Source: a virus. From it: DNA of 64,000 nt. Location of the stretch: UHGV virus genome UHGV-0134778; one strand, written 5' to 3'. A model generated the notes under the pieces. The model was not told the DNA's origin, ran no database searches, and saw nothing but the letters and a program-made list of their open reading frames with translations. This document shows, one piece after another, positions 3,060-45,041 of this stretch (position 1 is its first letter; every line of letters starts with the position of its first letter). A program made the position numbers and the translations under genes.

Positions 3060-3593
3060 ATGACTTGTGCTAGAAAACCTGACGAACAACGTAACGCCTA
3101 TGATGAATATGTGACACCAGAGTGGTGTGCAGAAGGGTTGTATGACCTCATTCCGTTCCCAGAAGATTGGACCTATTTGGAGCCTTGCAGGAATAGCGCC
3201 TCAGGTGTGTTCTACTCCCGTATGCCGTTAGGATCTGCATGGGGAGAAATCCAAGAAGGTGTTGACTATCTGAATACAGAATACAACCATGTTGACTGTA
3301 TTATCACCAACCCGCCGTACAGCCTGGCTCGTGAGTTTGTGGACAAGGCGTTGAAAGATGCCGACGTAGTTATTATGCTTTTGCGTCTTAATTTTCTGGA
3401 AAGCAAGGCCAGATTTGAATGGTGGCTTGATAATGCCCCTACCACTGTGATCACAATATCTAAGCGTCCATCATTCCAATCGAATGGCAGAACTGACGGG
3501 CAAGCATATGCATATTTTGTGTGGGACAAGAAGAACCGTTTAGACCTACCGCCATTTATGTGGTTGGCACCTCCGGAGGCAGACTTGAAATGA
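3060..3593 (+). CDS. phage Dam-family N6-adenine DNA methyltransferase
   Basis: DEYVTPEW near the N-terminus, EPCRNSA and catalytic ITNPPYS are typical of the small phage Dam-type (NPPY) methyltransferases. Confidence 0.6.
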   Translation: MTCARKPDEQRNAYDEYVTPEWCAEGLYDLIPFPEDWTYLEPCRNSASGVFYSRMPLGSAWGEIQEGVDYLNTEYNHVDCIITNPPYSLAREFVDKALKDADVVIMLLRLNFLESKARFEWWLDNAPTTVITISKRPSFQSNGRTDGQAYAYFVWDKKNRLDLPPFMWLAPPEADLK

Positions 3594-3874
3594 AAATGAG
3601 TGCTAAGGACAAGTTGCACCAGTTAGCGCTAAAACGTCCTGTAACTCTCCCTGACGAGCTTAACTCCATTTATGATGCGATTGTAGGGGAGATACAAAAT
3701 AAGGCGTTAGCAGGCTTTCTGGGATGCGGATTTTCGATAAATCTTCCATCACACCTCTCAGACTACTTACCACACATCGTTGGGGATTTGAGGGCAGGAG
3801 GTCTGCAGGTGGATGTTGTTGGCATCTCCCCGGAGAAAAATAACACAGTTGCCTACTTGACAGTGACCTGGTAG
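3590..3874 (+). CDS. hypothetical protein
   Basis: In-frame ATG at 3590 overlaps the upstream stop (ATGA coupling). The track ORF begins at 3521 but that part overlaps the methyltransferase gene. Confidence 0.45.
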   Translation: MKMSAKDKLHQLALKRPVTLPDELNSIYDAIVGEIQNKALAGFLGCGFSINLPSHLSDYLPHIVGDLRAGGLQVDVVGISPEKNNTVAYLTVTW

Positions 3875-3909
3875 TAGTGTATTTTGTTTTCAACAAGAGG
3901 GGGTCATCT

Positions 3910-4149
3910 ATGTATAAGTCATTTTCAATCTACTCAAGACAGACAAAACACTACACAGAGATTCTGATCACTCAGAAAAAATCTGTGGAAGGTGAGTGGG
4001 AATATCATCATAAAATGTTGCGTCCAGACTGGGTTTTTGACAGGCTTATTGCTATGATCCCTCTTGGAGAAGTATACCCTCTGACAGGTCATAGGGATGC
4101 TTGGGATTTAATTGACTATATAGATTCATTTAAGGAGCCTAGATTATGA
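3910..4149 (+). CDS. hypothetical protein
   Basis: ATG 3910 preceded by AGAGGGGG RBS; the longer track ORF starts at 3877. Confidence 0.4.
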   Translation: MYKSFSIYSRQTKHYTEILITQKKSVEGEWEYHHKMLRPDWVFDRLIAMIPLGEVYPLTGHRDAWDLIDYIDSFKEPRL

Positions 4150-4544
4150 AGATTGAGATTACTGAAGAAGGTAAGAAAGTCTCTGGTAACTATGCAACAG
4201 TTATCCGTGATGTAATGTTCGAAGTCACTAAGATTGGCACATCCAAGGTTGGTCAAACGGTGAGTGTGCAAGGTAATATCACCTCAGGAGAGAAGATATT
4301 CATCGTAATAAAAGGCCAGGACCCTGTAGAAGGGACAGTTGGACGTGGCGGATACCTGTGTATCTCTGAAGAGCCTCGCATGCTAGTTGCTGATAACTCT
4401 ACAGGTAAAAAGCGGGTATGTAACACGGACGAGGTGATGATTATCTATCCAGTCAACCCGGATGATCCGGCAACATGGATTGTGGGAAATGAAATCTTCT
4501 CTTTAGAAGAGTTATCCTTCCCAGCTCCGCGATCTGTTCAGTAA
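4146..4544 (+). CDS. hypothetical protein
   Basis: 132-aa ORF; start overlaps the upstream stop (ATGA); RBS AAGGAG. Confidence 0.5.
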   Translation: MKIEITEEGKKVSGNYATVIRDVMFEVTKIGTSKVGQTVSVQGNITSGEKIFIVIKGQDPVEGTVGRGGYLCISEEPRMLVADNSTGKKRVCNTDEVMIIYPVNPDDPATWIVGNEIFSLEELSFPAPRSVQ

Positions 4545-4583
4545 TAATTTATCTTACCAGGGACGGTAAAAGTAGGAGGTAGC

Positions 4584-4817
4584 ATGAAAGTTAAATTTCT
4601 TACAGATTTAGGGTACCCTTCCTTGGTTGACTGTGTTGGTAAAATTGTGGAAGCAAAACGGCTATCTGCAAACGATAATGTTGTCATGGTTAAGGGAAAA
4701 GATTTACTAGCTGCAGGTGCAGAGTCTGGCAGGATCTCTCCTGACTATACGTATTACCTGTCTTTAAGTAATCTACCAGAACGAGGCGGCAAAGGCCTTG
4801 AAGTTGTGGAGGAGTGA
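4584..4817 (+). CDS. small acidic protein, EVVEE-tail paralogue family
   Basis: MKVKFL... and C-terminal ...LEVVEE; shares the KG.DL.AAGA core with 8142 and 8359. RBS GGAGG. Confidence 0.5.
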   Translation: MKVKFLTDLGYPSLVDCVGKIVEAKRLSANDNVVMVKGKDLLAAGAESGRISPDYTYYLSLSNLPERGGKGLEVVEE

Positions 4818-4822
4818 CAGGT

Positions 4823-5359
4823 ATGCTTCTGATTAACTGGGAAGACCTCTATGGGGACAAAGACCCTGTTGCGTTTGTTGATCGTAGGTGGAGGTACACT
4901 GAAGAACAACTGGCTGCAAAAAATTTAACTGCAAAACGCAGAAAGATCATCCAGTGCAAGTACAAATACGCACAGTTTGCTGCAAAAGTGTCTCCACAAA
5001 TCGAGAGTTTTGTACTTAAATTGTATGACGAGTACCTCAAATTCAAATTGGATTTTGTACAGGTATACCGTGCACAGGTACGTCCAGATACCAACATCTG
5101 TAGATGGAAGGTTGTTTGTGATGGTAAAGATTTGCCGCTCAGTTTGACAATTGAGTGGCGTTGGGGGTATCATGAGTGCGGTTTGTATGATATTTGGGAT
5201 GTCATTGTAGATCCTGCTAAGTACCTGAACACAGAGGAGCTGGAATATATCAATAAGGTTATTCTAGATATGTTTTTCAGCTACACCCATGAAAACTCTG
5301 AGAAAGAACGGGATAATTTTCTTGACACCCTCGGCAACCACCTGCAGTGTACAATTTAA
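4823..5359 (+). CDS. hypothetical protein
   Basis: ATG 4823 after GGAGGAG; the track alternative is GTG 4814. Confidence 0.5.
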   Translation: MLLINWEDLYGDKDPVAFVDRRWRYTEEQLAAKNLTAKRRKIIQCKYKYAQFAAKVSPQIESFVLKLYDEYLKFKLDFVQVYRAQVRPDTNICRWKVVCDGKDLPLSLTIEWRWGYHECGLYDIWDVIVDPAKYLNTEELEYINKVILDMFFSYTHENSEKERDNFLDTLGNHLQCTI

Positions 5360-5377
5360 CCTACAAAGGAGGAGCCA

Positions 5378-5581
5378 ATGAGTATAGATGCTGTGCTGAT
5401 AGGTTACCTGGTAGTAGCTGTTATAACAGCAGTAATCTTGGCAGGTATATGCATCGTGTCTACCCGAAGGGTGAAGTTTGATGATTTTATCACCATCATC
5501 ACTGCTGCGCCCTTTTGGCCTGTTGTTATCTTCATCGTAATAATGTGCCTAGTTGATTACCACAAGAATATCCGTAAGTAG
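5378..5581 (+). CDS. small membrane protein
   Basis: 67 aa with two hydrophobic stretches (LVVAVITAVILAGICIV and WPVVIFIVIMCLV); RBS AAGGAGGAG. Confidence 0.5.
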   Translation: MSIDAVLIGYLVVAVITAVILAGICIVSTRRVKFDDFITIITAAPFWPVVIFIVIMCLVDYHKNIRK

Positions 5582-5597
5582 AAAAAGGAGAGTAGGG

Positions 5598-5750
5598 ATG
5601 GATACCGCACCTAAAACTGTTTATACTGTTCTTAAAGAGATTGCATTCTACGCAGATCTTAGCCGGGCACCTTTATGGGAAAAGAATATGTATTTAAAAT
5701 GGTGCGTGAAATTAGGGGGGCCTTCTAATGTTTCAAGCCATGTTTATTGA
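5598..5750 (+). CDS. hypothetical protein (50 aa)
   Basis: ATG 5598 after AAGGAGAG; the track ORF from 5553 would overlap the previous gene. Confidence 0.35.
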   Translation: MDTAPKTVYTVLKEIAFYADLSRAPLWEKNMYLKWCVKLGGPSNVSSHVY

Positions 5751-5833
5751 AATGCTCTCTGGGGTATTACTGCTGGTAGCCATTTTAGGTGGCGCGGCGC
5801 TGATGTATAATTATCTTGAAAAAGGGGACAGTA

Positions 5834-6019
5834 ATGACAAAAAATAAATCCTTAGAACAGGCTGAAAACCTTCTCCACGAGCTGGTAAAGGAGTGGAAAG
5901 TTGAATACTCAGATTTTAATGCAAGAGAGGGGGAAGATTATTGGCCTACGGAGCGCTCAGAGGGAGAGTGGTATCAAGATTTCATAGAATGGCTATATCA
6001 GACGTGCGATGAGGGGTGA
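5834..6019 (+). CDS. hypothetical protein
   Basis: ATG 5834 after AAGGGGAC; acidic, Trp-rich small protein. Confidence 0.45.
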   Translation: MTKNKSLEQAENLLHELVKEWKVEYSDFNAREGEDYWPTERSEGEWYQDFIEWLYQTCDEG

Positions 6020-6477
6020 CGATGTTTGTTAAATATGTAAAAACGTGCCTCAACAACCTTGGTAGAGAGCATTGGTACACACTGCTTGAAAAAGGAGAAA
6101 TTTTAACAAAATCTGGAAAGATAACTTTGATACCTTTGGACGATAAAGACCCGTCACTACTTGTCATAGATGATTACGTTACAGGTGTGTCGTACGAGGT
6201 ATCTGTGGAGAGGTTAATACGCAGATCTGGAGGTCCTTATGACCGAAGAGAGTATGTTTTCGATTCCGTTACAGAGAAGGAAGATCCGTCTCTAATGTTT
6301 AGGATGGTAATCAGGGATATGAAATCATCTATAAATAGGATCGTAAAGGACATTAAGGAGCCTTTTAGGGTAAAAGTTAAGAAGTTTTTTGATTCTAAGA
6401 TCAACATACTTGCAGTTGTGCTAGGCGTAATTCAACTTCTGTTAATTTTGCACTATTTTGAACTGTTGTTTAAGTAA
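6016..6477 (+). CDS. hypothetical protein with C-terminal hydrophobic segment
   Basis: 153 aa; start overlaps upstream stop; C-terminal ILAVVLGVIQLLLILHYF is hydrophobic. Confidence 0.5.
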   Translation: MTMFVKYVKTCLNNLGREHWYTLLEKGEILTKSGKITLIPLDDKDPSLLVIDDYVTGVSYEVSVERLIRRSGGPYDRREYVFDSVTEKEDPSLMFRMVIRDMKSSINRIVKDIKEPFRVKVKKFFDSKINILAVVLGVIQLLLILHYFELLFK

Positions 6478-6537
6478 TGTGCATTATGGCACAAAGGATG
6501 TGCCATAACTAAATAAACTAAGAAAGAGGTAGAGAGA

Positions 6538-6885
6538 ATGTCAAAGATTAAATCGATATTAATGTGGGTGGCTGTTGTAGCTTTTGTAGGATACTGGACT
6601 TGGGAAACTGAATTAAAAGATATTGGGTATACCAGTCTTGAGAGTAAGGCGTGCATTGGCATAACCGATGCATTCAGGCAGAATGCTATGGATCACGAAT
6701 GTGTCGATGCAGATATAGATGAGAAACTGTCTAAGGACAAAGATTTTTACCATGGTCATGCCTTGCTTGATAGTGGTGATACTGTAGAATTCTGGTCGTG
6801 GTTCCGTGAAGATGGGACAATAAAGACAGCAGTAAAGATTTCCAACAAAGAGTTGATGCTGTTGCAGCAGAAGGAGGTGCAATGA
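6538..6885 (+). CDS. hypothetical secreted or membrane-anchored protein
   Basis: N-terminal signal/anchor-like LMWVAVVAFVGYWTW; RBS AAGAGG. Confidence 0.5.
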   Translation: MSKIKSILMWVAVVAFVGYWTWETELKDIGYTSLESKACIGITDAFRQNAMDHECVDADIDEKLSKDKDFYHGHALLDSGDTVEFWSWFREDGTIKTAVKISNKELMLLQQKEVQ

Positions 6886-7151
6886 TCTGGATATCCTACG
6901 CTGATGGCACCATGCTGTATACTGCAGGTACTAGATATGAAGTTAAGGAGGACGATAAAAAATTTATCGTAAAAACATTTGACAAGGACGACAACCTTTT
7001 GCTAGAATTGACTTACAAGGTTGGGGATGTATCTAGCATCCAATTGGATTGCGGTCATAAAGATAACCCGCTCAAGAAACCTGGGGTAGGTAAAGCTTCA
7101 GAAGAACGCCTGTCTCGTATTGCAGAAAGCGTTTCTGCACAAAAAATCTAA
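6882..7151 (+). CDS. hypothetical protein
   Basis: 89 aa; ATGA overlap with the upstream gene. Confidence 0.5.
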   Translation: MIWISYADGTMLYTAGTRYEVKEDDKKFIVKTFDKDDNLLLELTYKVGDVSSIQLDCGHKDNPLKKPGVGKASEERLSRIAESVSAQKI

Positions 7152-7166
7152 AAAGGGGACTAGAAA

Positions 7167-7361
7167 ATGAAAAACTTACATTTTAACACTTATTACTACA
7201 ACACTTTGAATGATTTGTATTATATTGTTCGAAGTAAAAATCCTGAAACAGTCCTATTCTGCCGCGAACCTTTCAAAGGAGAGGAAGTGGAGTCTGAGAT
7301 GAATGTTAGCCAGATTACCTCTTTGTTGCTCTCAGGTGCAATGGAAGAAGCAATATTCTAA
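7167..7361 (+). CDS. hypothetical protein
   Basis: 64 aa; RBS AAGGGGA. Confidence 0.45.
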   Translation: MKNLHFNTYYYNTLNDLYYIVRSKNPETVLFCREPFKGEEVESEMNVSQITSLLLSGAMEEAIF

Positions 7362-7379
7362 ACCAGGCGGGAGGGTTTT

Positions 7380-7568
7380 ATGAAGCACTATTGTCTGTCT
7401 GGTAGGATGGGGGTGGATTGTGATTGGGTTTTCTTAAAACTTGTCAGCGTTCGAGAGTCCATCCCAGAGGAAGAGCAAGAAAGCGAGCTGATGTCATGGA
7501 TCAACCATTACGGTAACACTTTTCGGCATGTTAAGGTAGAAGAGTTGCCAAGCGAGGCTGAATTATGA
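7380..7568 (+). CDS. hypothetical protein
   Basis: 62 aa; RBS GGGAGGG. Confidence 0.4.
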   Translation: MKHYCLSGRMGVDCDWVFLKLVSVRESIPEEEQESELMSWINHYGNTFRHVKVEELPSEAEL

Positions 7569-7861
7569 AACTTTTTGAGTGGTTTAAAAAGTTTAAATAT
7601 AAAGCTGTAGCCATCGTGCCGTGGTCCATTCAGTGGGTTGATGAAGGTGGTCTACCGATACCTGGTGACAAAGATACTGGGTACTGGATTATGATGGAGA
7701 ACGGGTTTGGAAAGCGAAAGTATACGTGCACAAACTCTACTCGATCTGCACTTAATAGAGTGCCTGGTTACAAACTTATGGTTGTGTGGAAAATGTCAGG
7801 CGTGCCTCCAGCCAATGCTCAATTTCTTACTGACAATCCGACCACGGTAGAGGGAGATTGA
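7565..7861 (+). CDS. hypothetical protein
   Basis: 98 aa; ATGA overlap. Confidence 0.5.
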   Translation: MKLFEWFKKFKYKAVAIVPWSIQWVDEGGLPIPGDKDTGYWIMMENGFGKRKYTCTNSTRSALNRVPGYKLMVVWKMSGVPPANAQFLTDNPTTVEGD

Positions 7862-8145
7862 TAATGAAAAAGATTAACAGTAGTGAAGTAGAGTTTAAAC
7901 TTGTCGGAAAAGGCACTTACTGGGAAGTTCGTCAAAAGGTATATTTGTTCGGTCTTATTCCCTACTGGTCTAAATTCTACTGGGGAGCTAACGAGTTGGG
8001 AAGATACGCCACCAAATCAATGGCACTTATTGGTATAGCAGAGTACATTGCAGCCCGAGACAGGGTTGGAACCACTTATTACTACACTGCTGACGATATT
8101 CGTAACAGTGTTTACGTCCCACAACCACCTGATGGAGACCGTTGA
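7858..8145 (+). CDS. hypothetical protein
   Basis: 95 aa; overlapping start/stop. Confidence 0.5.
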   Translation: MIMKKINSSEVEFKLVGKGTYWEVRQKVYLFGLIPYWSKFYWGANELGRYATKSMALIGIAEYIAARDRVGTTYYYTADDIRNSVYVPQPPDGDR

Positions 8146-8369
8146 TGAAAGTTAAAGTTTTAGATTCAAGCTTCTATATTGGTCAGGAGCCTTTAGTAGG
8201 AAAAGTGTTTACTGCTGTCCCTAACGAAGATTACCCTGACCTTTTAAAAATAAAAGGAGCAGATCTTATTGCCGCTGGTGCATCTCAGGAATGCTTTGAC
8301 AGTCAGTGGACCTATAACTTTGCCCTAGGTGAGGATGTAGAGGTAGTGGAGGACGATCATGAAGGTTAA
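8142..8369 (+). CDS. small acidic protein, EVVEE-tail paralogue family
   Basis: MMKVKVLD...KGADLIAAGA...VEVVED; paralogue of 4584 and 8359. Confidence 0.5.
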   Translation: MMKVKVLDSSFYIGQEPLVGKVFTAVPNEDYPDLLKIKGADLIAAGASQECFDSQWTYNFALGEDVEVVEDDHEG

Positions 8370-8613
8370 AATTCTTGATTCTAACGTCTACTTGGGACAA
8401 TCCTTCCTGAATGGAAAGGTCGTTCCTGCGGTATACTTTGAAGGGTTGCCGTGGGATGATCCTGTGCGGCAACATCACAGTTATGTAGGCCACAACGTGG
8501 TGTTTATCTTGGGATCAGACCTGATCACCGCTGGTGCACCTGAATATTATTTCGGGGAAGAGTCCTACTATGCCTTTGGGGTAGGGTCAGATGCAGATAT
8601 TGTAGAGCTGTGA
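8359..8613 (+). CDS. small acidic protein, EVVEE-tail paralogue family
   Basis: MKVKILD...GSDLITAGA...; tandem paralogue of 8142. Confidence 0.5.
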   Translation: MKVKILDSNVYLGQSFLNGKVVPAVYFEGLPWDDPVRQHHSYVGHNVVFILGSDLITAGAPEYYFGEESYYAFGVGSDADIVEL

Positions 8614-8625
8614 TGGGTAACCGTT

Positions 8626-9024
8626 GTGAAAAATAAACTGTTTAAAGTTACAATGAAAATTCGCGGAGCTTGGAGCGTAAAGCAAGGGCGCATCCCAGAG
8701 TTTGAGAAAGACTTCTACGTAGTCTCCACCTCTGAAGAGGCTGCATGCTGGCAGGCTGGATATGCCTATGCAAGAACCTGGTACGAAGGATACCAGACTG
8801 GAGGCTATGACGGAGAAATTGTCAGCAAGGGTGTGGAAGAAATTAATGTGTTGACAAGTGAAAAAGTTTTTGTTATAGTGCATCCTGATTCTAGAGTGAA
8901 GCATTACTGGAATGCCAGAACAAAAACCTGGACACCGTTTGCAGATTCTGCTACACCGCTTTTAAACCAGAAAGCTCTTGACTCTGCCCCAAGCTATGGG
9001 GTTGTTGAAGAAAAGATAAGCTGA
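8626..9024 (+). CDS. hypothetical protein, paralogue of 10833..11228
   Basis: HPDSRVKHYWNARTKTWTP matches HPHSNIAYYWDVLNNEWTP in 10833..11228; start is GTG. Confidence 0.5.
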   Translation: MKNKLFKVTMKIRGAWSVKQGRIPEFEKDFYVVSTSEEAACWQAGYAYARTWYEGYQTGGYDGEIVSKGVEEINVLTSEKVFVIVHPDSRVKHYWNARTKTWTPFADSATPLLNQKALDSAPSYGVVEEKIS

Positions 9025-9041
9025 AATAGTGGGGTACTTAC

Positions 9042-9332
9042 ATGATGGATTTAGTTTTGGACACTGATAACACCGAATCGTTTAAAAAAGATGGTGTAAT
9101 AAGCATGGACCAACCCTGCCATGCCAAGATTGACTCAAAATGGACCTACAAGTTTGACGGTGAGATCTTCGCAAATGATGAGAAGGTCGTGGATGCTGTA
9201 GCCATTTTAAACGCTTTAGGGTATGACCCTGTGAACTCATTGATCAAGGATCCTGTTGAGTTTGCAGAGTATGTTCGTAAAATGGCAGATCTTGCAGTAG
9301 ATATTTTAAAAACTATCGACGACAAGCTGTAA
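9042..9332 (+). CDS. hypothetical protein
   Basis: 96-aa ORF. Confidence 0.5.
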   Translation: MMDLVLDTDNTESFKKDGVISMDQPCHAKIDSKWTYKFDGEIFANDEKVVDAVAILNALGYDPVNSLIKDPVEFAEYVRKMADLAVDILKTIDDKL

Positions 9333-9338
9333 AAACTG

Positions 9339-9400
9339 TTGACACAACACTTGATCTTTAGTATCATTATTTTCAAAGAGGGTTTGGTTCCCTCTTCTTT
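9339..9400 (+). promoter_or_regulatory. sigma70-type promoter with hairpin at the predicted transcript 5' end (hpf leader)
   Basis: TTGACA (9339-9344), 17 nt, TATCAT (9362-9367); hairpin AGAGGG-TTTGGTT-CCCTCT at 9377-9395 followed by TCTTT, then RBS AAGGAG. Confidence 0.55.
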
Positions 9401-9414
9401 AAAAGGAGCACGTT

Positions 9415-9732
9415 ATGCAGATTGAAATCACTGGCAACGTAGAGATCACTGAAGGTATGGTGTCTTTCATTTCCCACAAAATGTCCAAACTGGAGCGTTT
9501 GCACCCATCTGCCAACTATGCACGTGTGAGTGTAAAAGTTGAAAATGATCACCAGGAAGTTATGGCTTTTATTTTTGACAATTCTGGGAAAGAAGTTATC
9601 GCCAAAGCTAAAGGTAGCGATGCTTACGAGGCAACTGACCGTATGGTGGATGTTGCAGCACGCCAGTTGGCTAAATGCGGTGGAAAGAAAGGTAAGGGAA
9701 AAGGTAAAGTAAAGATTGACTTTTTAGATTAA
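9415..9732 (+). CDS. hpf: ribosome hibernation promoting factor / RaiA (YfiA) family homologue
   Basis: MQIEITGNVEITEGM...VSVKVEN...AKGSDAYEATDRMVDVAARQLAK tracks the recalled E. coli HPF MQLNITGNNVEITEAL...VVLKVEK...AEGQDMYAAIDGLIDKLARQLTK. Lys/Gly-rich tail. Own promoter 9339-9367 and RBS AAGGAG. Confidence 0.7.
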   Translation: MQIEITGNVEITEGMVSFISHKMSKLERLHPSANYARVSVKVENDHQEVMAFIFDNSGKEVIAKAKGSDAYEATDRMVDVAARQLAKCGGKKGKGKGKVKIDFLD

Positions 9733-9741
9733 GGTGCTACA

Positions 9742-9843
9742 ATGGGCATGATTAAGAAATTAGTCCCAAATGTAGAGATTGCATGCTTTGAAATTATGTT
9801 TGCAATCGCAGTTGTAGTTAATGTGTTAGGTTACGGCTATTAA
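9742..9843 (+). CDS. micro-protein, hydrophobic (33 aa)
   Basis: ATG 9742 after AAGGTG; sequence IACFEIMFAIAVVVNVLGY is transmembrane-like. Below the track cutoff. Confidence 0.3.
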   Translation: MGMIKKLVPNVEIACFEIMFAIAVVVNVLGYGY

Positions 9844-9870
9844 TTATCAAATAATTGAGGAGACCTCTAA

Positions 9871-10140: not shown

Positions 10141-10232
10141 TCCTGCTTGGGTTGGAATACTTTCCTCGACAAGAAAGGTTTATAATTATTTGTGGGAAAG
10201 GAATCCCCATCTCTTACCAGAGGTGATACTAT

Positions 10233-10496: not shown

Positions 10497-10500
10497 GAAT

Positions 10501-11228: not shown

Positions 11229-11239
11229 TTTTATGCCAC

Positions 11240-11275: not shown

Positions 11276-11304
11276 ACCTTCATCTTAACAAGATAGGAGA
11301 CCGA

Positions 11305-12612: not shown

Positions 12613-12621
12613 GGGGGCTGT

Positions 12622-36783: not shown

Positions 36784-39561
36784 TTAGTGACAATCACCCC
36801 AGTTACGACCACACAAGTATTCACCTGTGATCTGGAACGGAACGCCCATCATTTTAGAAGCTTGCCAGAAGCAATGTACCACCATTTCGCCCACAGGGCT
36901 CCAGATAAGTTCAAGCTTTCCGTCATCGTTCAAGATAGGATCGTATACCGTATTTCCATCCCTGTCAACTACTTCGTTTCCTTCTTCATCCTTGCGTGCC
37001 TTTTTGTACTTATGACCGTCGAACACATGAAGTTTAGCCTCCTGCTGGGACTTAAATGTTTCCAGCTCTTCAATTGTGTCGAAGGTGTATACAGTTTTAT
37101 ACTTAGGTGTGTCAGGGACTTGAAGTTGATATTCGTCATGGTAATAAATAATACGACGAACACCCTCATCATACCATCCACGCTTCACCATCTGGTGGTG
37201 CATGAGTATCCCAACTAAGTCACACAATGATGCACCGCCATTTTGCTGATATGCATTAAGCAAAGAGTGTTTAGATCGGGTCCAAATGGCATGACCGTCA
37301 AAAGAGTAGATAAATTTCTTACCTGTTGCTTCCCAGAATTTCTCCAGATCCTCTTTACGACCCTTAAGACCTGGGTTGGCATCCCAGAGAGCGTCAATTA
37401 CTCTCTGTCCCAGTTCTGGAGAGATATCTAGCATATCTGCAACTTTATCTTTTTGTGCCCCGTACATAACCCCATACGTGACAGGCTTACCATCGTTACG
37501 AGACACCTCCCTGCCTGCTACTTTTGTATATGCCTCAGCATTGTTTTGGTGCGCATCTCCGTTACTTACAACATCATAATACAGACCGTTGTCAAACTCA
37601 AAGGCACCCCAGGCCCCGATGAGCTGCTCTAAGTTGGACCCGTCAATACCGATCTCAAAGTATCCTGGAGGAACACCCCACAGACTACGCATCTCTTTAC
37701 CCATAACCACTTTAGGAGATGGTTTAGGCATGTTTGCACAAATGCTGTGTTTCTGTCTGGAAGTGTTTGTTAATCCAGAACTTTTAGCAGGAAGCTTATG
37801 GTCAATCTTCAAACGTGGATGATTAAGAAGACCAGTATCAACCTTATCCTCCTTGATTGGATCAAGGACCGATCTACGGTTTCGCAAGGATAACCACAAG
37901 ACGATATCTTTAGCCATCTCTCCGTTCAACTTTTCAAGATTCGGACATAGGTGTCCAAACGTATCTTTCAGTTGCGGAGAAGTAATAAGCGCTCTGGCTT
38001 TTCTACGTATCTTCCCAAACACTTCCTTTTTAATCCTTTCTGAGTTAGGGAAGCTTCGGAACTTGTGCACGGTTGTCTGAAACTTAGCATCAGTTTTGTT
38101 CCAGAAGTTGATAATTAGGTCACAATACTCTGACTCTAAAAGCTCGTCCATATATGCATATACTCGTGCATCAACATCAGCATCAGGCAGAGCTTTCTTC
38201 TTGCTGTCCTTGGTTACATCTTTAGTTCTCCACATTGTTGGGAGCCAACCAGCGCTGATCAAATATCGCTTAATATCGTCCTGGTTGCTGATCTTCATAG
38301 GTATCTTGCAGTCAGGCATCCGCTTCTGCTGCAGATCACTTATTGCCTGATCCATTAGTTCTTTAGGTAAAGGATGTGGTGTAGAGGTTCCTTTGATATA
38401 CCCCCTCAAGAAATCAGCCATCTTATCTGGGTCTTTACAGCCCATCTCTTCACACCATTTTATCCCCATTTTGCTGACATCCCCTGTGGAGGTAAATGCT
38501 CGCTTAGGAGGAGCTTTGAACTCTAAAGCGCTCATGTCCACAGGATAGCCAAGCTTGTCTTTTAACCATTTCCAACCATTATTGGAGATTGTCCCATCCT
38601 GGTTAAACGGCTTTTCAGGGAACTTAGGCCGCTGAGACATTGATAACTCTTTTAAAGGAAGTTGTGGTTCAACACGATCAGCGATCTCCTTCATCCACGC
38701 ATCGCAGCGGTCACGTAAAGCAATAGCTCCATCTATGTCGAAATACACACCCTGTCGAGCCTGCAGCTCCATCAGGAAATGCTGCAGCATGCCTCGGCGT
38801 AATGCATTCTTCCAGGTAATCTTCTTGAATCCTTTAGGCTTCTCTTTGGCAGGGTCATACATAAAGTTCTGCATGTCAGATTTGCCGTAGAATACACCTT
38901 TTGATTCCGCTACCAACTCTTTCCAGAGCAACTCCTGGATGATAACGTCCTCGAACACACGATCCACATATTTCCACAGCGGAAGCTCACGCCAGTCATC
39001 GATTTGAACTTTCTGGTTACCAAGGGCATAGCCCCATGCCATAAGGCCATGAGGTCCAACAGGCTGCATTTTCTTGGTAACTGGATTGAATACTGCGTCC
39101 GGACAACCTTTTGGCAAAGGGCGGTCAGGCCACAAGATTCGACTCATCGCTAACGTATCAAACAGATTAACCTGGTGGTCGTTGATAGTTCCCATGCATT
39201 TAGGATCACGGAACATATCAAAATGAATACCGGATAATCTTTCCATCAGCATAAAGTCGTAACTGTAGCAGTTATGGCAGTTCAAAGCCGTAGGTGACCA
39301 GTCTGAATTGCCTGTAAGCCAGCCTTCCAACTCTGAAAAATCTGCTATGCGAGCCTCAAAATCTGTATAAAGGGTCTTCTTTGCCAGAATGAAGTTCTTA
39401 GCTTTCTCCACATCCTCTTCAGAGTAGTGTGTGCGGTCATTTAGAGGAAGGAACAGCATAAAACGGTTCTTATTCAGCTCTTTAAACAAACCGCAGTGAT
39501 AATAAAGATCTGGGTCTTCCAGCAAGCCAGAGGCCTCAAAATCGAACGACCACATGCTCAT
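36784..39561 (-). CDS. family A DNA polymerase with 3'-5' exonuclease domain
   Basis: N-terminal Exo I-like FDFEASGL, polymerase motif B-like DGKPVTYGVMYGAQ and motif C IIYYHDEYQ; 925 aa. Confidence 0.9.
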   Translation of the reverse strand: MSMWSFDFEASGLLEDPDLYYHCGLFKELNKNRFMLFLPLNDRTHYSEEDVEKAKNFILAKKTLYTDFEARIADFSELEGWLTGNSDWSPTALNCHNCYSYDFMLMERLSGIHFDMFRDPKCMGTINDHQVNLFDTLAMSRILWPDRPLPKGCPDAVFNPVTKKMQPVGPHGLMAWGYALGNQKVQIDDWRELPLWKYVDRVFEDVIIQELLWKELVAESKGVFYGKSDMQNFMYDPAKEKPKGFKKITWKNALRRGMLQHFLMELQARQGVYFDIDGAIALRDRCDAWMKEIADRVEPQLPLKELSMSQRPKFPEKPFNQDGTISNNGWKWLKDKLGYPVDMSALEFKAPPKRAFTSTGDVSKMGIKWCEEMGCKDPDKMADFLRGYIKGTSTPHPLPKELMDQAISDLQQKRMPDCKIPMKISNQDDIKRYLISAGWLPTMWRTKDVTKDSKKKALPDADVDARVYAYMDELLESEYCDLIINFWNKTDAKFQTTVHKFRSFPNSERIKKEVFGKIRRKARALITSPQLKDTFGHLCPNLEKLNGEMAKDIVLWLSLRNRRSVLDPIKEDKVDTGLLNHPRLKIDHKLPAKSSGLTNTSRQKHSICANMPKPSPKVVMGKEMRSLWGVPPGYFEIGIDGSNLEQLIGAWGAFEFDNGLYYDVVSNGDAHQNNAEAYTKVAGREVSRNDGKPVTYGVMYGAQKDKVADMLDISPELGQRVIDALWDANPGLKGRKEDLEKFWEATGKKFIYSFDGHAIWTRSKHSLLNAYQQNGGASLCDLVGILMHHQMVKRGWYDEGVRRIIYYHDEYQLQVPDTPKYKTVYTFDTIEELETFKSQQEAKLHVFDGHKYKKARKDEEGNEVVDRDGNTVYDPILNDDGKLELIWSPVGEMVVHCFWQASKMMGVPFQITGEYLCGRNWGDCH

Positions 39562-39619
39562 ATACAGTTCTCCTTAAAGGGGAGGCGGTTGTACTACCCC
39601 TCCCACTCTTGGTTAAACA

Positions 39620-41698
39620 TTAAAAAGGTGTTTCGTCGTCTTCAAAACCGGGGACGTGGTTAGAGGACGGATCATCATACTGAGGATCTTCCTGTGTGTC
39701 AACTGGGGTAACAGTAGGAGTTACAACCTTATCAGCCACAACCTTGCCCACAGGTGTTTCCACAACTGCATGATCTTGATCCTCAAACATAGCCTGAGGT
39801 CTCCAAACAACCTCCCCACCTTCTCCGTCTGTAAACATTTGCATTTCTTTATCCCAGTACCAATTGCTGGCATCGTGGAACTTGCCTGTGTGAGGATCCA
39901 TAACTAAAGTGTCCGCAATACCTAGGGTTTTTGCTGGGCGGTTTTTAAGACTTACCAGTCGGACACGTCCACGGGAACGATCCACCATCTCTTCTGCTTC
40001 TACCCCAACAACTACCCAGCTGAGTTGCTCCAATCCGGCACTACCTCGAAGGTTCTCTTTTCGTACAGGGTACCAGAAAGGCAACGGATTCCCATCCTTA
40101 TCCTTAGGAGGTACAATCTCTGTACGTTTCAGGTGAGCAATCACCAGGATAAACACATTAAACTGCTTACAGAACGCGGCTAGTTGAGTCATAGCCATGT
40201 CAAGTTCTTTGCGCTCATCCTTAACATTAAGCCCTGAAATCACCATAGACAAGTGATCCAGCACAATGTAACGGCAGTGATACAGGCACACCATTTGTTT
40301 AAGCTTAGTGATCAGCTCATCCACAGGGATGGAGCCGAAATGCTTGAACACTTTGATTTTTCCGGTCTTGGCCCAAGATTGATGAATCTCAGCGTGCTCC
40401 TGGTCGGTCAGGAACTGACTGGGGTCTTCAACAAACTCTTTAACATCAAACCCCAGCTGGTTAGCGTACAGAGAGTTGATTGCTTCCTCAGGATCCTCTT
40501 CAAGGTGAATCAGACACAGGCGATCATCCTCTTCATAATCATCAGCTTTAGGGCATGTTGGATCCATCAAGTATCTTGCAATGCAGTGTTCCAGCTTCTT
40601 GGCTATAGTTGTTTTACCACCGCCAGATGGGCCTGTTAGCATCATCAAGGTGCCTTTGTGGAGCCCTTTCAGCATCTTCTGCAATTTAGGGAACTCCGCA
40701 CTGATATCCACGCCATTGGAAGTCTTCTTACGAAGAGATTCAATGGAGAAGTCTTCTAAATCAGATACAGCATCAGGCACATATTTGACTGGGTGACGGA
40801 ACATGTTGACAATATCTTCCAGCTTTTTAGCCTTCAGCATGTCACGAATATCTTTTACACCATCGGGATCGTTTACCTCTCCTGGGTATTCCACGTGGTA
40901 AACGTTGTCAGCCATTAAAAATGCTGCGATATTATGTGTGGCTTCAACACCTTTGATAACGTGTTTTTGCTTCTCTACCTCGTTAGCTGCATCGTTGTCC
41001 ATTGCAAGGACCACTGTTCCATAGCTACGGATAAATTTCTCATTGTTCGCAAAAGTGTCTACGGCGTTTGCACACCCGCAGTTAATTCCAACAAAAGGCA
41101 GGCAGGGTTTTCCTGCCAGGTCTCCGCCGTTGATAACTGCATCAATCCCATCTTGAACTTCTTTAGCCCACTGCTTCACCTTCGCTGGGGCTTTAGCATT
41201 GGTGAGAATGCCCTTCACTTGTATCTGATATGCAGCTTGCCATGCTGCAATAACATCACCCTCCCCCTCGCAGACGTTAATCTGTTTACGGTTGTTGGAG
41301 GATGCACACAGCTTTTGACCAAACATCTGAGAGTTGGCCTTTACTATGCCAACAACTGAGAAATGGCCTCTTTGCTCTTTAGGGATTGTCCAGTCACGCT
41401 TTTTAAAGCCGGATAGATTACCGTAGCGGTCGTAATATGGGAAATATGTTGCGGTGACCGTTACCCCGTCTTCCTGAGACAATGCTGATCGCACACCAAA
41501 ATATTGTGCAGCCATCAGTCCGATATTTTGTTGTGGAACAGGGACAATTTTAGTATTTTCTAAAACAGTCTCTACAGTTTCAACCTCTTTTTCATCACGA
41601 TAGTCTCGTTTCACACTTCCCCCACTTTTATACTTAGTTGCTTTCGGGTTTGGCTCACCGAAACGGTTGTATGCAGATGCCATGAATTTACTGCCCAT
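39620..41698 (-). CDS. bifunctional primase-helicase (T7 gp4-like) with acidic C-terminal tail
   Basis: Toprim-like VVLAMDNDAANE, Walker A LTGPSGGGKTT, DnaB-type helicase region; C-terminus ...GFEDDETPF. Confidence 0.85.
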   Translation of the reverse strand: MGSKFMASAYNRFGEPNPKATKYKSGGSVKRDYRDEKEVETVETVLENTKIVPVPQQNIGLMAAQYFGVRSALSQEDGVTVTATYFPYYDRYGNLSGFKKRDWTIPKEQRGHFSVVGIVKANSQMFGQKLCASSNNRKQINVCEGEGDVIAAWQAAYQIQVKGILTNAKAPAKVKQWAKEVQDGIDAVINGGDLAGKPCLPFVGINCGCANAVDTFANNEKFIRSYGTVVLAMDNDAANEVEKQKHVIKGVEATHNIAAFLMADNVYHVEYPGEVNDPDGVKDIRDMLKAKKLEDIVNMFRHPVKYVPDAVSDLEDFSIESLRKKTSNGVDISAEFPKLQKMLKGLHKGTLMMLTGPSGGGKTTIAKKLEHCIARYLMDPTCPKADDYEEDDRLCLIHLEEDPEEAINSLYANQLGFDVKEFVEDPSQFLTDQEHAEIHQSWAKTGKIKVFKHFGSIPVDELITKLKQMVCLYHCRYIVLDHLSMVISGLNVKDERKELDMAMTQLAAFCKQFNVFILVIAHLKRTEIVPPKDKDGNPLPFWYPVRKENLRGSAGLEQLSWVVVGVEAEEMVDRSRGRVRLVSLKNRPAKTLGIADTLVMDPHTGKFHDASNWYWDKEMQMFTDGEGGEVVWRPQAMFEDQDHAVVETPVGKVVADKVVTPTVTPVDTQEDPQYDDPSSNHVPGFEDDETPF

Positions 41699-42482
41699 TA
41701 ATTCTGCTCCTTACTGCAGGCTCGTTTGCTAAGAATACAGCTTTAGCCCAGCCACGTGGTGTGAGGCTTCGAATCATCTTCGTCCTTGCACTCTTTCCAC
41801 CTAGCTTAGCGTGTTGCATAGAATAACCGCTAACCGCATCCACTATTTGCGGGACAGGTTTTGTGGCTGGGATTATAAATCCATTGCCTATCCAACCGCA
41901 AGTTATTTTTGGGTAGGCATCACGTGGAGCTATAAATTCAGGAAACCATGGGTTTACATCATCTTCTGGTAAATAACCGCCATAATCTGAAGGATGAAAA
42001 CGATAATCAGGTTTTCGCCACAGTGTGGACATAACCCCCACAGGGTTCTCTACATGCCACGGGCAATCGTAAATCTCTCCCAACTCTTCTGCAACCCGAG
42101 CATCTTTTACAGCATTAATTTGAATCAGAGGGTCCTTAGCCAGCTTTTTCTTAAAATGTGCAGCGCCTGATACTGCTAGATGCGTGCACGGAGGAAATGC
42201 AAGAATAAAGTCTGGAGCTGGGTACATGCAAAAAGTTTCTTGAGGGAACCACGGGTCAATCCAATAATCCACGTAGTGAATGTTTGGATGATCTGTTATC
42301 ACCTCTGCATAACTGCCATGGTCAGCGCCTTCTGCGTTAAAGCACAGGCACAGATATCCAGCTTTTGCCCAGTCAATGACTGCACCGCCAGATCCGTCAA
42401 ATAGACTCCACACAACACCTTTGTGGTGGTGTTCTTTATAGATAAATTTCAATTTGCTGTCTCCTAATGCAAAAAGCCCCAC
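41688..42482 (-). CDS. small C5-cytosine DNA methyltransferase-like protein
   Basis: Motif I-like LFDGSGG, motif IV-like FPPCTHLAVSG (PC catalytic dipeptide), motif VI-like HVENPVG (ENV). Only 264 aa, so activity and specificity are uncertain. Confidence 0.5.
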   Translation of the reverse strand: MGLFALGDSKLKFIYKEHHHKGVVWSLFDGSGGAVIDWAKAGYLCLCFNAEGADHGSYAEVITDHPNIHYVDYWIDPWFPQETFCMYPAPDFILAFPPCTHLAVSGAAHFKKKLAKDPLIQINAVKDARVAEELGEIYDCPWHVENPVGVMSTLWRKPDYRFHPSDYGGYLPEDDVNPWFPEFIAPRDAYPKITCGWIGNGFIIPATKPVPQIVDAVSGYSMQHAKLGGKSARTKMIRSLTPRGWAKAVFLANEPAVRSRINGQ

Positions 42483-42503
42483 CCTTTCGGGCAGGGCCTA
42501 GTG

Positions 42504-42986
42504 TTAAACCCGGATACCTATTGTATACTCGGTGGATACCAATGTCAAATCTAAATTTAAAATTTCTTGCATCTCATAGTATGCATCCAGGGTGAGATAC
42601 ATTTCCCCATCCTTTTCTACATACTTGTCCAAGTGCTTGAGGCATTTCGGATAACTATCAAGGGCAGCCTTTAGGCACTCAAACTCTGTGCTGTTGATGA
42701 GTCCTTCCATCTTGGCTACCCGTTCTGGGGTAACGATAGCACTGTAGTGAGATTTAGCTTCCTGGATGCAATGGGTCCAAGCATCAACTTTCTCTTCGAA
42801 AAGTCCGAAGAACTTCTTTTTGGTGAGCTTCAGATTCTTTAAGTGCTTAAGCACTCGGTTACCGATCACGGCCACATCACGAAACTTAAGGATCACTTTG
42901 TCGATATCCTCGCGGCCTATTTTCACAAAGCAAGCCTCACACATTTCAGGAGCTGCGTAACCTACTTTCCACATAAAATCTGACAT
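42504..42986 (-). CDS. hypothetical protein
   Basis: 160-aa ORF. Confidence 0.5.
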   Translation of the reverse strand: MSDFMWKVGYAAPEMCEACFVKIGREDIDKVILKFRDVAVIGNRVLKHLKNLKLTKKKFFGLFEEKVDAWTHCIQEAKSHYSAIVTPERVAKMEGLINSTEFECLKAALDSYPKCLKHLDKYVEKDGEMYLTLDAYYEMQEILNLDLTLVSTEYTIGIRV

Positions 42987-42998
42987 AACACTATCCCC

Positions 42999-43397
42999 TT
43001 ATTCTTCCTGAAAAGCAACGATATCATATGAACTTGCAGACGATCCTGGTGAAGAATGACTCCAGTCTAGGTCATCAGAGTAGTCAGCGTACTGTGCACC
43101 ACTACGTAGTTTATATTTTACCCACTTACCTGGTGCAGGGTTTTCACCACCTTCCCATACTTCCCAGCCTTCTGGCAGGCCGTCCTGGGGACAGTCATCC
43201 ACCTCACTAATAATCTTAGGGTTTGGCACCAAGATCCCTGCAGGCTCTTCCTTCCGGATAAGTGTCCACACAACGTAGGTGTCTGAGCAGGCGCATGATA
43301 GCAAAGTATATCCACTATTCAGAACTTCTGCAAGCTCTTTTTCAGCATCTTCCAATTTGGTTAAGTGGTATTGGATAACCTTCACACCTGTAATCAT
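42999..43397 (-). CDS. hypothetical protein
   Basis: 132-aa ORF. Confidence 0.5.
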   Translation of the reverse strand: MITGVKVIQYHLTKLEDAEKELAEVLNSGYTLLSCACSDTYVVWTLIRKEEPAGILVPNPKIISEVDDCPQDGLPEGWEVWEGGENPAPGKWVKYKLRSGAQYADYSDDLDWSHSSPGSSASSYDIVAFQEE

Positions 43398-43741
43398 CAG
43401 AAACCTCCCACTTCTTCAGCAAATGCAGCTGCTGTCGTCGCTGCATCCAGATAGGACTCTAGTTCACGGGCTGCACGTTTGTAAATTGAGTGGCGCATAT
43501 CGTTTGGCAGTTTGTGGAAGTCCACCTCTTCACCGTTGTGGTAAACATGCACATCGGTAATTTGTCTAAATCCGTAATAGTCAACATCAGAATCACGGCA
43601 CTCTGGGTCTGGCAACTGGACAACTGCCTGAGCTTCCACAGTGAACATCTCGTCAAGTTCGAAATCGATTTCAAAAGTGTATGGTTTATAACGTTTCATC
43701 ATTTGATTGTACTCTTTATTGGTCAGACTTATCTTTCGCAA
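43397..43741 (-). CDS. hypothetical protein
   Basis: 114 aa; coupled to the upstream gene. Confidence 0.5.
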   Translation of the reverse strand: MRKISLTNKEYNQMMKRYKPYTFEIDFELDEMFTVEAQAVVQLPDPECRDSDVDYYGFRQITDVHVYHNGEEVDFHKLPNDMRHSIYKRAARELESYLDAATTAAAFAEEVGGF

Positions 43742-45041
43742 TTAAGGTCGGGGTAAGTTTGTAATAACGGAAGCCACCACCACCTTCCCAGTTTACAGAC
43801 TTAGAAATACCACCTTGATCTTCACCATCGATCACTTTTTCCAAGCGCGGAATAATATGGGTATGACAATGATCACCTAGCTCGATTGAGATCCAACGTC
43901 TTTTCATCTTGTGAGCTACAGCAGCAGTAGTTCCCGAACCACCGAATGAATCCAATACCAAATCGCCTTCTCGCGTACACATTTCGAAAATCCGCTTCAA
44001 AAGCGCTTCTGGTTTTTTCCCATTTTTGAAACTAACGCCGCCTTCATTTGCTATTCCATTCCAACTAATGTCTGTCCAAACATCAGTTATTAGTTCCGCA
44101 GGTTGCATCTCACCGTCAATTTCCAAAAGCCTGTTGGAGTAAAAGACCATTTGCCTACCATTTGCGATATAAAATCCTTCAACATCTTCATTTGGATGTA
44201 CATAAACCTTATCCCTGTCTTTCTTTGACTTCTCGATAGTTTCTTTTCTCTTTATTTTAGCTCCACCGCCAATTGCAACAGATTGAAATACACGTTCTGC
44301 ATTATCAATTGCGAATTGTGCTAATTCATCATCGAATGTATCAGGCAGTTTTTTCTTGGCTTCTTTTGCATCTTTATAGCCATTGGCCTTTGCAAACGCA
44401 TCGGCAATACCGCACCACGTCCAATTTTTATAATGGTCATCCGGGTTTAATAGGTATTTGTTATATCCTGTATCATACCCTTTAGGTATATAGATTTTGT
44501 TAAGCGGTTTCTTGGTGCGATCTTTTGCATATACAAGCAAAAAGTTTGCTGTGGAGAAAACTGTGGCTCCTGTTGCCTTAAATCCCGAAGGAGAATTTGT
44601 GGTCATCGATATGGTATTTAACTGATTTGCACGACCAAAAATCTCGTCCATCAAAACTTTTAAATATGCCATTTCGCAATCATCTAAGTGAACGAATATT
44701 ACCCCATCATCACTTAGAAGATTACGAATTATTTCTAACCTATCCCTCATTAAGCCCAGCCAAATGGAATGCTCCAGGCTATCATCGTAGTGCTCAAAAG
44801 CCCTCCCGGTATTGAATGGTGGGTCTATGTAAACACACTTCACTTTGCCTGCATACTCTTGCTCTATCGCCTTCAATGCTAATAAGTTATCTCCAAAAAT
44901 CAGTTTATTATCAAAAATATCGTTTTCGGTCACTTTCTGGCTGTGGTAAGATTTGCTAGAATCTTCTAACAAAATGTACGGCTCTAACTTTTTGCGCTCG
45001 TTTTTACCTATCCAGGTAAGTTCTAATTTGGTTTTACTCAT
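43716..45041 (-). CDS. beta-class N6-adenine/N4-cytosine DNA methyltransferase (orphan, Type III Mod-like)
   Basis: N-terminal LTWIGK, catalytic motif IV VYIDPPFN ahead of AdoMet motif I VLDSFGGSGTT (beta-class order). No restriction subunit nearby. Confidence 0.8.
   Translation of the reverse strand: MSKTKLELTWIGKNERKKLEPYILLEDSSKSYHSQKVTENDIFDNKLIFGDNLLALKAIEQEYAGKVKCVYIDPPFNTGRAFEHYDDSLEHSIWLGLMRDRLEIIRNLLSDDGVIFVHLDDCEMAYLKVLMDEIFGRANQLNTISMTTNSPSGFKATGATVFSTANFLLVYAKDRTKKPLNKIYIPKGYDTGYNKYLLNPDDHYKNWTWCGIADAFAKANGYKDAKEAKKKLPDTFDDELAQFAIDNAERVFQSVAIGGGAKIKRKETIEKSKKDRDKVYVHPNEDVEGFYIANGRQMVFYSNRLLEIDGEMQPAELITDVWTDISWNGIANEGGVSFKNGKKPEALLKRIFEMCTREGDLVLDSFGGSGTTAAVAHKMKRRWISIELGDHCHTHIIPRLEKVIDGEDQGGISKSVNWEGGGGFRYYKLTPTLIAKDKSDQ

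Follow-up and report, generated by a model that had tools for sequence, protein, structure and literature searches.

The 64,000-nucleotide (nt) stretch of virus genome UHGV-0134778 (hereafter the window) is probably best explained as part of an rV5/FV3-like Vequintavirus with three orphan methyltransferase genes that look functional and each have a history of their own; one of these genes, p3, would be a captured Mod, the methylation subunit of a Type III restriction-modification (RM) system. The direct basis of this explanation is gene structure, folds, motifs, homology, junctions, distribution and purifying selection, from which we infer the enzymatic activity, specificity and protective effect of the proteins. 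An earlier note on this DNA had described three methyltransferases of different classes and proposed that they provide broad self-protection against host restriction. The three open reading frames (ORFs) were found where it had placed them and on the same strands (Table 1, p1, p2 and p3), and their assignment to different classes was borne out as well: p1 is a gamma-order amino-methyltransferase, p2 a C5-methyltransferase and p3 a beta-class, Mod-like amino-methyltransferase. In a six-frame scan of the 64 kb for (D/N/S)PP(Y/F) or PC catalytic motifs, p1, p2 and p3 were the only real ORFs, and all three matched PHROG families annotated 'DNA methyltransferase' (p1, phrog_799, 5e-67; p2, phrog_757, 4e-87; p3, phrog_67, 2e-63).

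Two stretches around these genes (9 kb and 4.5 kb) were about 96% identical to B9-1, S127 BCL3, ECP26 and NHEP1, which are rV5/FV3-like coliphages of the genus Vequintavirus, and more than 110 deposited records matched both stretches at at least 90% identity; by nucleotide identity, the window is assigned to this group. The three genes are already annotated as methyltransferases in more than 100 GenBank records of rV5-like phages, under labels such as 'DNA methyltransferase', 'DNA cytosine methyltransferase', 'adenine methyltransferase' and 'type III restriction-modification system methylation subunit'. The observation of three methyltransferases is real but ordinary, and the proposed protective role is the textbook one, phage orphan methyltransferases having reportedly been treated as anti-restriction functions by Murphy et al. 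2013. What is added here beyond annotation is the origin and domain structure of p3.

Domain structure, origin and distribution of p3

p3 carries the catalytic motif DPPF at amino acids (aa) 73–76 and motif I (DSFGGSG) at about aa 364–370. As in Mod proteins, a beta-class N6_N4 methyltransferase domain is combined with an N-terminal domain (NTD), and a target recognition domain (TRD) is inserted between motif IV and motif I. Motif order and NTD/methyltransferase/TRD architecture are the same as in EcoP15I Mod and the PADLOC MTase_III proteins, and the best solved relatives were the Mod proteins of Helicobacter pylori (6k0w, 3.8e-28) and EcoP15I (4zcf, 4.7e-24). Against the PADLOC MTase_III profile PDLC03636, p3 gave an E-value of 8.5e-204 but covered profile positions 2–444 of 575 only, whereas the Escherichia coli homolog covered positions 1–572. 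The end of p3 aligned to residues about 521–525 of EcoP15I Mod, in which the methyltransferase domain ends at 516 and the C-terminal domain (CTD) spans 539–644 (PMC4490356). In EcoP15I, the CTD of ModA extensively contacts Res, and dimerisation occurs via the NTD and the methyltransferase domain (PMC4490356). Because p3 ends before the CTD in the EcoP15I frame, it would be a Mod without the Res-docking domain. The beta class and DPPF motif given in the earlier note hold, but the likeness to Mod is not confined to the N-terminus: p3 is Mod-like over its full length and the CTD is absent.

A homolog search found p3 to be 96% identical at the amino acid level, over its whole length, to P0243, an E. 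coli protein of 567 aa; almost all of the remaining homologs listed were proteins of 570–600 aa from several phyla with 60–76% identity. At the nucleotide level, an uninterrupted 94.6% match to the 5' 1.33 kb of E. coli mod began 13 nt before the ATG and ended at codon about 438. Compared with the 568-aa E. coli Mod (WP_213054361/WP_024226319), p3 lacks the approximately 125-aa CTD and is without res; this Mod is carried by E. coli strains such as APEC E16002 and SMN152SH1. The TRD (aa 178–318) was 99% identical between p3 and E. coli Mod, in comparison with 35–70% in distant homologs, and the NTD and methyltransferase domains were 95–96% identical. The ratio of nonsynonymous to synonymous substitution rates (dN/dS) of p3 was 0.08–0.10 (436 codons, three comparisons). 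This low ratio indicates that p3 has been kept by selection, very likely with the specificity of the host enzyme.

In 5426 complete E. coli genomes searched by megablast, the p3 segment matched 24 at 90–95% identity and 5 at 80–90%, always on the chromosome. The E. coli Mod itself matched the PADLOC Type III model (7e-285), and its gene is followed by one encoding a 912-aa protein that matched PADLOC REase_III (8.8e-191). Upstream of mod there are AbiU/AIPR-like, AbiD-like, DrmD-like SNF2 (PADLOC, 9e-209) and mad1-like helix-turn-helix genes. The parent locus is a composite island (e.g., locus L004, 8855..19400), which in one strain adjoins tRNA-Sec and an integrase gene, and its SNF2-Mod-Res core recurs in other phyla with either different inserted cargo or none, as in Acinetobacter (AAA_21 and DUF4276 as cargo) and in an alphaproteobacterium. 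While E. coli mod is an island gene at tRNA-Sec accompanied by res, p3 is an accessory cassette in a phage replication module. We consider p3, by its sequence, to be a shortened copy, captured recently, of the methylase that belongs to a rare E. coli restriction system; no paper reporting this origin was found in the open-access text searched.

Other candidates for the origin of p3 were rejected. ARMADA II or MADS as the parent system did not hold, because Mod and Res match the PADLOC Type III models and the components described in the ARMADA paper differ from those of the E. coli operon, despite its mad1-like helix-turn-helix and DrmD-like SNF2 genes. A 442-aa homolog (P0290) was considered as a second truncation of the phage type; it belongs to a bacterial locus disrupted by a TnsA-like gene and is not an independent phage capture. 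Separately, the allele of E. coli HCP6S3_I2 matched p3 DNA over the first approximately 425 nt only (82%), and its recognition region differs.

Both junctions of the captured segment were resolved. At the 3' junction, an 11-nt deletion with respect to E. coli just after the KDK codons causes a frameshift that leads to a TAA stop (43716..43718). After the deletion, 15 further nt are identical (43707..43721), a remnant of the codons I-N-K-E-Y-N, and this mod remnant is joined to the next phage gene at an AAATG microhomology. In E. coli, CAGAAATG occurs at the start codon and again at codons about 455–457, and the empty site in phages reads CTAAACGATG; the repeats and the empty site are consistent with a microhomology-mediated capture. 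On the 5' side, the hairpin directly upstream of the p3 ribosome-binding site (RBS) is phage sequence, identical in occupied and empty sites (Table 1). In relatives without p3, the RBS and ATG of the 101-aa gene that otherwise lies downstream of p3 are located exactly at the insertion point, as in MaxTheCat (Bas57; L020 around 1097..1158), in which the downstream gene directly follows the same RBS.

Two classes of p3 allele were found in phages, one of 441 aa ending in KDKSDQ and another of 447 aa ending in KDK(L/F)DSEEDLE. Each class is approximately 95% identical to E. coli and 92–93.6% identical to the other, and the 5' junction is common to both. In the 447-aa class, the 5' leader of E. 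coli mod is found again between the truncated mod and the next gene (phage, ACACAAGATAAGGAGAACACCGAATGATGA; E. coli, ACACAAGATAAGAGCACAGAAATGATGA), at about 10700..10760 in S127 BCL3 (L001) and about 1745..1805 in FV3 (L011). The cassette of this class is thus flanked by imperfect direct repeats, a pattern expected from integration of a circularised host fragment or from loss by repeat recombination.

Among phages, p3 was present at at least 90% identity in 87 records, all of Vequintavirus, the next best phage match being 42% identical. Coverage of the p3 locus was below 80% in 31 of 117 records, and in the majority of those listed the gap is clean and approximately 1346 bp long. In the BASEL collection, DrSchubert (Bas50), JeffSchatz (Bas55), RudolfGeigy, JohannBauhin, MaxBurger and CarlMeissner are p3-positive, and AlexBoehm (Bas56) and MaxTheCat are p3-negative. 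From this distribution, p3 is classed as an accessory, host-derived cassette and p1 and p2 as core genes. That p3 is missing from many relatives, and that it is shortened, with a terminal frameshift due to the 11-nt deletion, would also fit a decaying, functionless pseudogene remnant of a host gene. However, the dN/dS of 0.08–0.10 over 436 codons holds in all three comparisons, the catalytic motifs are all intact, both allele classes keep an open frame to the same domain boundary and p3 uses a good phage RBS, which makes such a remnant extremely unlikely.

Proposed role of p3 and extent of protection

We propose that p3 was captured from a Type III(-like) mod on a mobile island present in approximately 0.5% of complete E. 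coli genomes, and that the phage kept the N-terminal dimerisation, catalytic and recognition domains, lost the CTD and never acquired res. Produced during replication, p3 would methylate progeny DNA at the recognition site of the host system, and virions would reach cells carrying that system already protected. Without the docking domain, the phage protein should not recruit the host Res. The protection conferred by p3 would concern one system or specificity and would not be broad. Among the three enzymes, p3 has the best-supported case for self-protection, given its near-identity to the methylase of a host Type III system.

Several observations weigh against this proposal. The assumption that a Mod without CTD may still be an active dimer is extrapolated from a single, distantly related structure, that of EcoP15I. 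Few E. coli strains carry the cognate system (24 to 29 of the 5426 genomes), and the selective value of p3 may therefore be small or lie elsewhere; it is missing from roughly a quarter of the genus. All Type II and Type III systems tested imposed strong restriction on phages of this genus (Maffei et al.), and the literature searched yielded no methylome or biochemical data for Vequintavirus. The rV5 genome paper makes no mention of methylation or restriction.

The broader alternative, in which the three enzymes together protect against many restriction systems and possibly also exert epigenetic control of phage promoters, as the earlier note had it, finds some support in the three different chemistries present in one genome and in the lack of avoidance of GATC (340 sites) and CCWGG in the window. 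The carriage of orphan methyltransferases by mobile elements is, in addition, a recognised 'Trojan horse' strategy against restriction (PMC12707154). Published phenotypes are at odds with such breadth. Vequintavirinae have been described as exceptionally susceptible to RM systems and as lacking effective protection, and their plating was heavily reduced by EcoRI, by EcoRV and by a pair of Type III systems (Maffei et al.). In the raw data, the efficiency of plating (EOP) was about 1e-3 with EcoRI and below detection with EcoRV and EcoCFT_II, and the pattern was alike in the p3-positive DrSchubert and in a p3-negative phage read as AlexBoehm (Maffei et al.). The test host was K-12, which is without the parent system of p3. 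These EOP data indicate that none of p1, p2 and p3 covers GAATTC, GATATC or the EcoCFT_II Type III site, and broad protection is largely refuted already for the six RM systems that BASEL covered.

The window instead avoids many 6-bp palindromes. No site was found in positions 1..64000 for CCGCGG, CGATCG, CGGCCG, CTCGAG, GCCGGC, GCTAGC, GGCGCC or GGGCCC, and TGGCCA occurred once versus 9.6 expected. The ratio of observed to expected counts was below 0.5 for 24% of palindromic 6-mers versus 0.7% of non-palindromic ones (Mann-Whitney p = 1.2e-6). Because the avoided sites are GC-rich 6-bp palindromes, the general strategy against Type II systems looks like site avoidance and not methylation. No evidence of any kind for promoter control turned up. 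Broad protection by the three enzymes is thus unlikely, and site avoidance together with a few specific methylases is the overall picture. Of the self-protection claimed earlier, the kind (anti-restriction) can be retained, with its best support in p3, and the breadth has to be dropped in view of the restriction by EcoRI, EcoRV and EcoCFT_II. That published phenotypes argue against broad protection in the genus is worth keeping in mind.

A different use of p3 would be as a subunit poison that forms heterodimers with the host Mod and thereby lowers the amount of restriction-competent Mod2Res during infection. The NTD and methyltransferase domains of p3 are 95–96% identical to those of E. coli Mod, the CTD is absent in both phage allele classes, and in EcoP15I it is these two domains that dimerise and only the CTD of ModA that contacts Res (PMC4490356). 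Restriction, however, hits incoming DNA before phage proteins exist, so that poisoning would set in late. Catalytic motifs and a TRD under strong purifying selection (99% TRD identity, dN/dS 0.09) would be superfluous in a pure decoy, and the truncation point can be explained by microhomology at the junction (CAGAAATG repeats). We regard poisoning as the main role of p3 as very unlikely. A variant to which we give slightly more, though still little, credence is that p3 was purpose-trimmed: it would co-assemble with the host Mod and disable the SNF2-Mod-Res complex, would also methylate phage DNA, and repeated phage-host exchange of alleles would keep the two proteins matched. If true, this would represent a domain-deletion route to anti-restriction by subunit poisoning.

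We also weighed roles internal to the phage, such as packaging or replication marking or escape from mismatch repair, in place of anti-restriction. In favour of such roles, p1 and p2 belong to the conserved core whatever the host, the replication module contains p2 and p3, many orphan methyltransferases may regulate viral replication cycles, and phage P1 needs Dam methylation at pac (PMC12707154). On the other hand, roughly a quarter of the genus can dispense with p3, the protein most closely related to it is a restriction-system Mod whose TRD is the same, and no data point to an internal role. Internal functions are accordingly about as unlikely as broad protection, and capture of a specific methylase remains the explanation that we prefer.

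Like T4 Dam, P1 Dmt and the multispecific C5-methyltransferases of Bacillus phages, p1, p2 and p3 are nuclease-less enzymes on a virulent phage that presumably pre-methylate the progeny (PMC12707154). Phage orphans described so far are mostly of Type II origin (PMC12707154), whereas p3 is a domain-deleted Type III Mod that is still approximately 95% identical to a living host system. With approximately 95% nucleotide identity, 99% identity in the TRD, clean loss of the docking domain and both junctions resolved, p3 is an unusually clean example, open to testing, of methylase capture by a phage from a living host defence system. The natural presence and absence of p3 in the BASEL collection makes protection by the captured Mod against its parent system directly testable.

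The core methyltransferases p1 and p2

p1 contains the motifs YxTP (aa 17–20), EPCRNSASG (motif I) and TNPPY (aa 83–87). Motifs X, I and IV are contiguous within aa 17–87 with no insert in between, which is not the alpha-class order, and the X-I-IV order with NPPY together with the catalytic-domain fold are those of the gamma class. PF02086, the true Dam family, did not match p1 even at E<=1. Matches below cut-off were obtained with PF13651 EcoRI_methylase (20.1 versus 26.4 bits), PF05869 'Dam' (19.2 versus 28.1 bits) and TIGR01712 phage_N6A_met (about 16 bits versus a cut-off of 97), and a precomputed PF05869 match exists on one distant homolog (P0203). Because sequence-only searches of p1 and p2 against solved structures gave nothing useful, profiles and predicted folds were needed. 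The p1 family profile reached M.TaqI by sequence (9.7e-5) with motifs X, I and IV aligned, and 144 of the 177 aa of p1 aligned to the catalytic domain of M.TaqI. p1 differs from M.TaqI in its small size and in lacking the separate C-terminal DNA-recognition domain, and the two proteins are approximately 20% identical in sequence. p1 is therefore a bare gamma-order catalytic domain without a recognition domain and not a member of the Dam family, to which the earlier note had assigned it.

Residues T19-P20, T83-N-P-P86, L107, R109, R118, R136, D146, Y150 and W155 were invariant in 34 aligned p1 homologs. Motif I has the canonical form EPCxGxG in distant relatives and the form EPCR(NS)ASG in the rV5 clade, which resembles EPACAHG of M.TaqI. 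p1 was present at at least 90% identity in 119 phage records, and homologs with 45–66% identity were found in Klebsiella Mydovirus, Certrevirus, Phapecoctavirus and Justusliebigvirus. This distribution marks p1 as an old core gene of Vequintavirinae and relatives.

From its motifs, p1 most likely makes N6-methyladenine, and our best guess is that its substrate is DNA. Near-equal structural scores were reached by rRNA m6A methyltransferases, which makes RNA a real alternative, namely that p1 is an RNA (rRNA/tRNA) or protein amino-methyltransferase that modifies the host translation apparatus or phage RNAs. We judge this possible but a good deal less probable than a DNA substrate: M.TaqI is the best match by both sequence and fold, with the DNA-methyltransferase motif X (YxTP) aligned, weak matches extend to the EcoRI-methylase, Eco57I and phage Dam families, and PHROG and most depositors name p1 a DNA methyltransferase, although these names are unverified. 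No tRNA genes, as possible p1 targets, were found in the window. A 94-aa ORF that overlaps the p1 stop (3590..3874) was considered as a specificity partner and rejected, since it is dissimilar to the ORFs downstream of the p1 homologs in CR3 and JohannJBalmer. Across genera, the p1 family remains linked to a ClpP-like protease gene (window, 1959..3593; L021, 581..2016). In the Cronobacter phage CR3 (Certrevirus), the p1 homolog and the ClpP-like protease gene are translationally coupled, and in the Justusliebigvirus JohannJBalmer the homolog is near a 'proteasome component' gene.

p2 carries the motifs FDGSG, PPC (Cys99), ENP (Glu145) and YPK (Lys192) in the numbering of the 264-aa maximal ORF. 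The ORF starts at GTG 42482, which sits within a terminator-like hairpin (Table 1), whereas TTG 42452, 30 bases downstream, is preceded by an AGGAG RBS, and p2 relatives are annotated at 254 aa. The start is therefore most likely TTG 42452, and of the 264-aa C5-cytosine methyltransferase-like protein proposed previously the C5 identity was upheld and the length corrected to 254 aa. p2 itself had no match in Pfam and NCBIfam, PF00145 included, and a precomputed PF00145 match was present in 3 of 120 listed homologs. The C5 assignment was made on motif I (FxGxG), the Pro-Cys of motif IV, an ENV-type motif VI and the catalytic fold. The approximately 85 aa between ENP and the C-terminal TK.IRSLTPRG.A.AV had no sequence match to canonical recognition-domain, IX or X motifs. 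Homologs numbered 3545 at E<=1e-3, those listed being mostly of 225–250 aa, and the family occurs in 1504 of 50,697 phage records, including Drexlerviridae, Dhillonvirus and Klebsiella siphoviruses. FDGSG, PPC, ENP and the C-terminal TK.IRSLTPRG.A.AV are invariant across it. On this basis, p2 is placed within the short, phage Dcm-like C5 family (phrog_757); in the genus it is a core gene.

A characterised member of this family is the 711-bp 'Dcm' of phage K42 (95% identical to the BASEL phage KarlJaspers), which makes 5-methylcytosine (5mC) at CCWGG in the multicopy single-stranded DNA (msDNA) of retron Ec86 and so triggers the retron (10.1101/2023.08.16.553469). Its catalytic residues are C82, E128, K175 and K176 (10.1101/2023.08.16.553469). 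p2 was 54% identical over the full length (2e-86) to the product of the 711-bp KarlJaspers gene bas06_0055 (Drexlerviridae). p2 and K42 Dcm share the size class and the equivalents of Cys82, Glu128 and Lys175, and the p2 fold is closest to DNMT3, which matches what the preprint reports for K42 Dcm. By analogy, p2 most likely puts 5mC on phage DNA, and a self-protection role is plausible because 5mC formation at CCWGG has been proven for one enzyme of the family. Two differences count against a direct transfer of function: the equivalent of Lys176 is Ile in p2, and the segment between YPK and GGKS (aa 205–225) is of the 'GYSxQH' subtype, in contrast to the 'DNPGW' subtype of the characterised enzyme. 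Because this small variable segment differs, the target of p2 may be CCWGG or another motif.

Neighbourhood of the genes and minor observations

Ten small and ten large neighbours of p1, p2 and p3 were compared with Pfam, the small ones also with PHROGs, and no nuclease signature was found beside any of the three genes, which confirms the earlier statement that a neighbouring restriction endonuclease is missing and that all three are orphans. The ten small flanking ORFs were without Pfam domain, and their PHROG matches were all to families without assigned function. The large neighbours encode a family-A DNA polymerase, a DnaB-like primase-helicase, a PIF1/RecD-like helicase, rIIA/rIIB and a ClpP-like protease, and p2 and p3 are located inside the replication module. 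A res gene (superfamily 2 helicase plus nuclease) does not adjoin p3, whose neighbours are small ORFs and the PIF1/RecD-like superfamily 1 helicase.

Table 1. Coordinates of the genes and other features of the window
Feature	Position	Strand	Evidence or description
p1, 177-aa minimal gamma-order (M.TaqI-like) amino-methyltransferase catalytic domain (putative)	3060..3593	+	Motifs and fold
p2, 254-aa short 'Dcm-like' C5-cytosine methyltransferase (putative)	41688..42452	-	TTG start 42452
Terminator-like hairpin between the upstream 160-aa ORF and p2	42474..42499	-	11-pair stem, 7 GC pairs, then TTTTTG
Sigma-70-like promoter site	42520..42548	-	TTGACA, 17 nt, TACAAT; 11/12 consensus matches
101-aa phage gene downstream of p3	43397..43702	-	phrog_4240, 1.3e-32
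3' junction of the captured segment	43703..43726	-	Pairwise alignment and three-frame translation, seven phages and two E. coli copies
p3, 441-aa beta-class N6-adenine methyltransferase (Mod-like NTD, methyltransferase domain and TRD; putative)	43716..45041	-	PF01555, 2.6e-42
Host-derived segment (5' part of mod)	43727..45054	-	Megablast, pairwise blastn
GC-rich hairpin GGGGAGG..CCTCCCC directly upstream of the p3 RBS	45068..45085	+	Terminator-like; annotated terminator in phage Alma

The 101-aa gene downstream of p3 also had a weak match (1.2e-5) to phrog_1573 (138 positions, 'DNA methyltransferase'), and it is too small for such an enzyme. The sigma-70-like promoter site, which is near consensus, falls within the terminal part of the 160-aa ORF, a short way upstream of the terminator-like hairpin preceding p2; promoter-like sites were no more numerous in this region than expected from shuffling. 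Finally, several records named 'Campylobacter phage', with C. jejuni as the host, were 93–97% identical to the rV5-like coliphage window (MG065635, MG065644, MG065646, MG065647, MG065654, MG065659, MG065661, MG065662, MG065672, MG065674 and MG065682), and these MG0656xx entries are probably mislabelled or contaminating coliphages.

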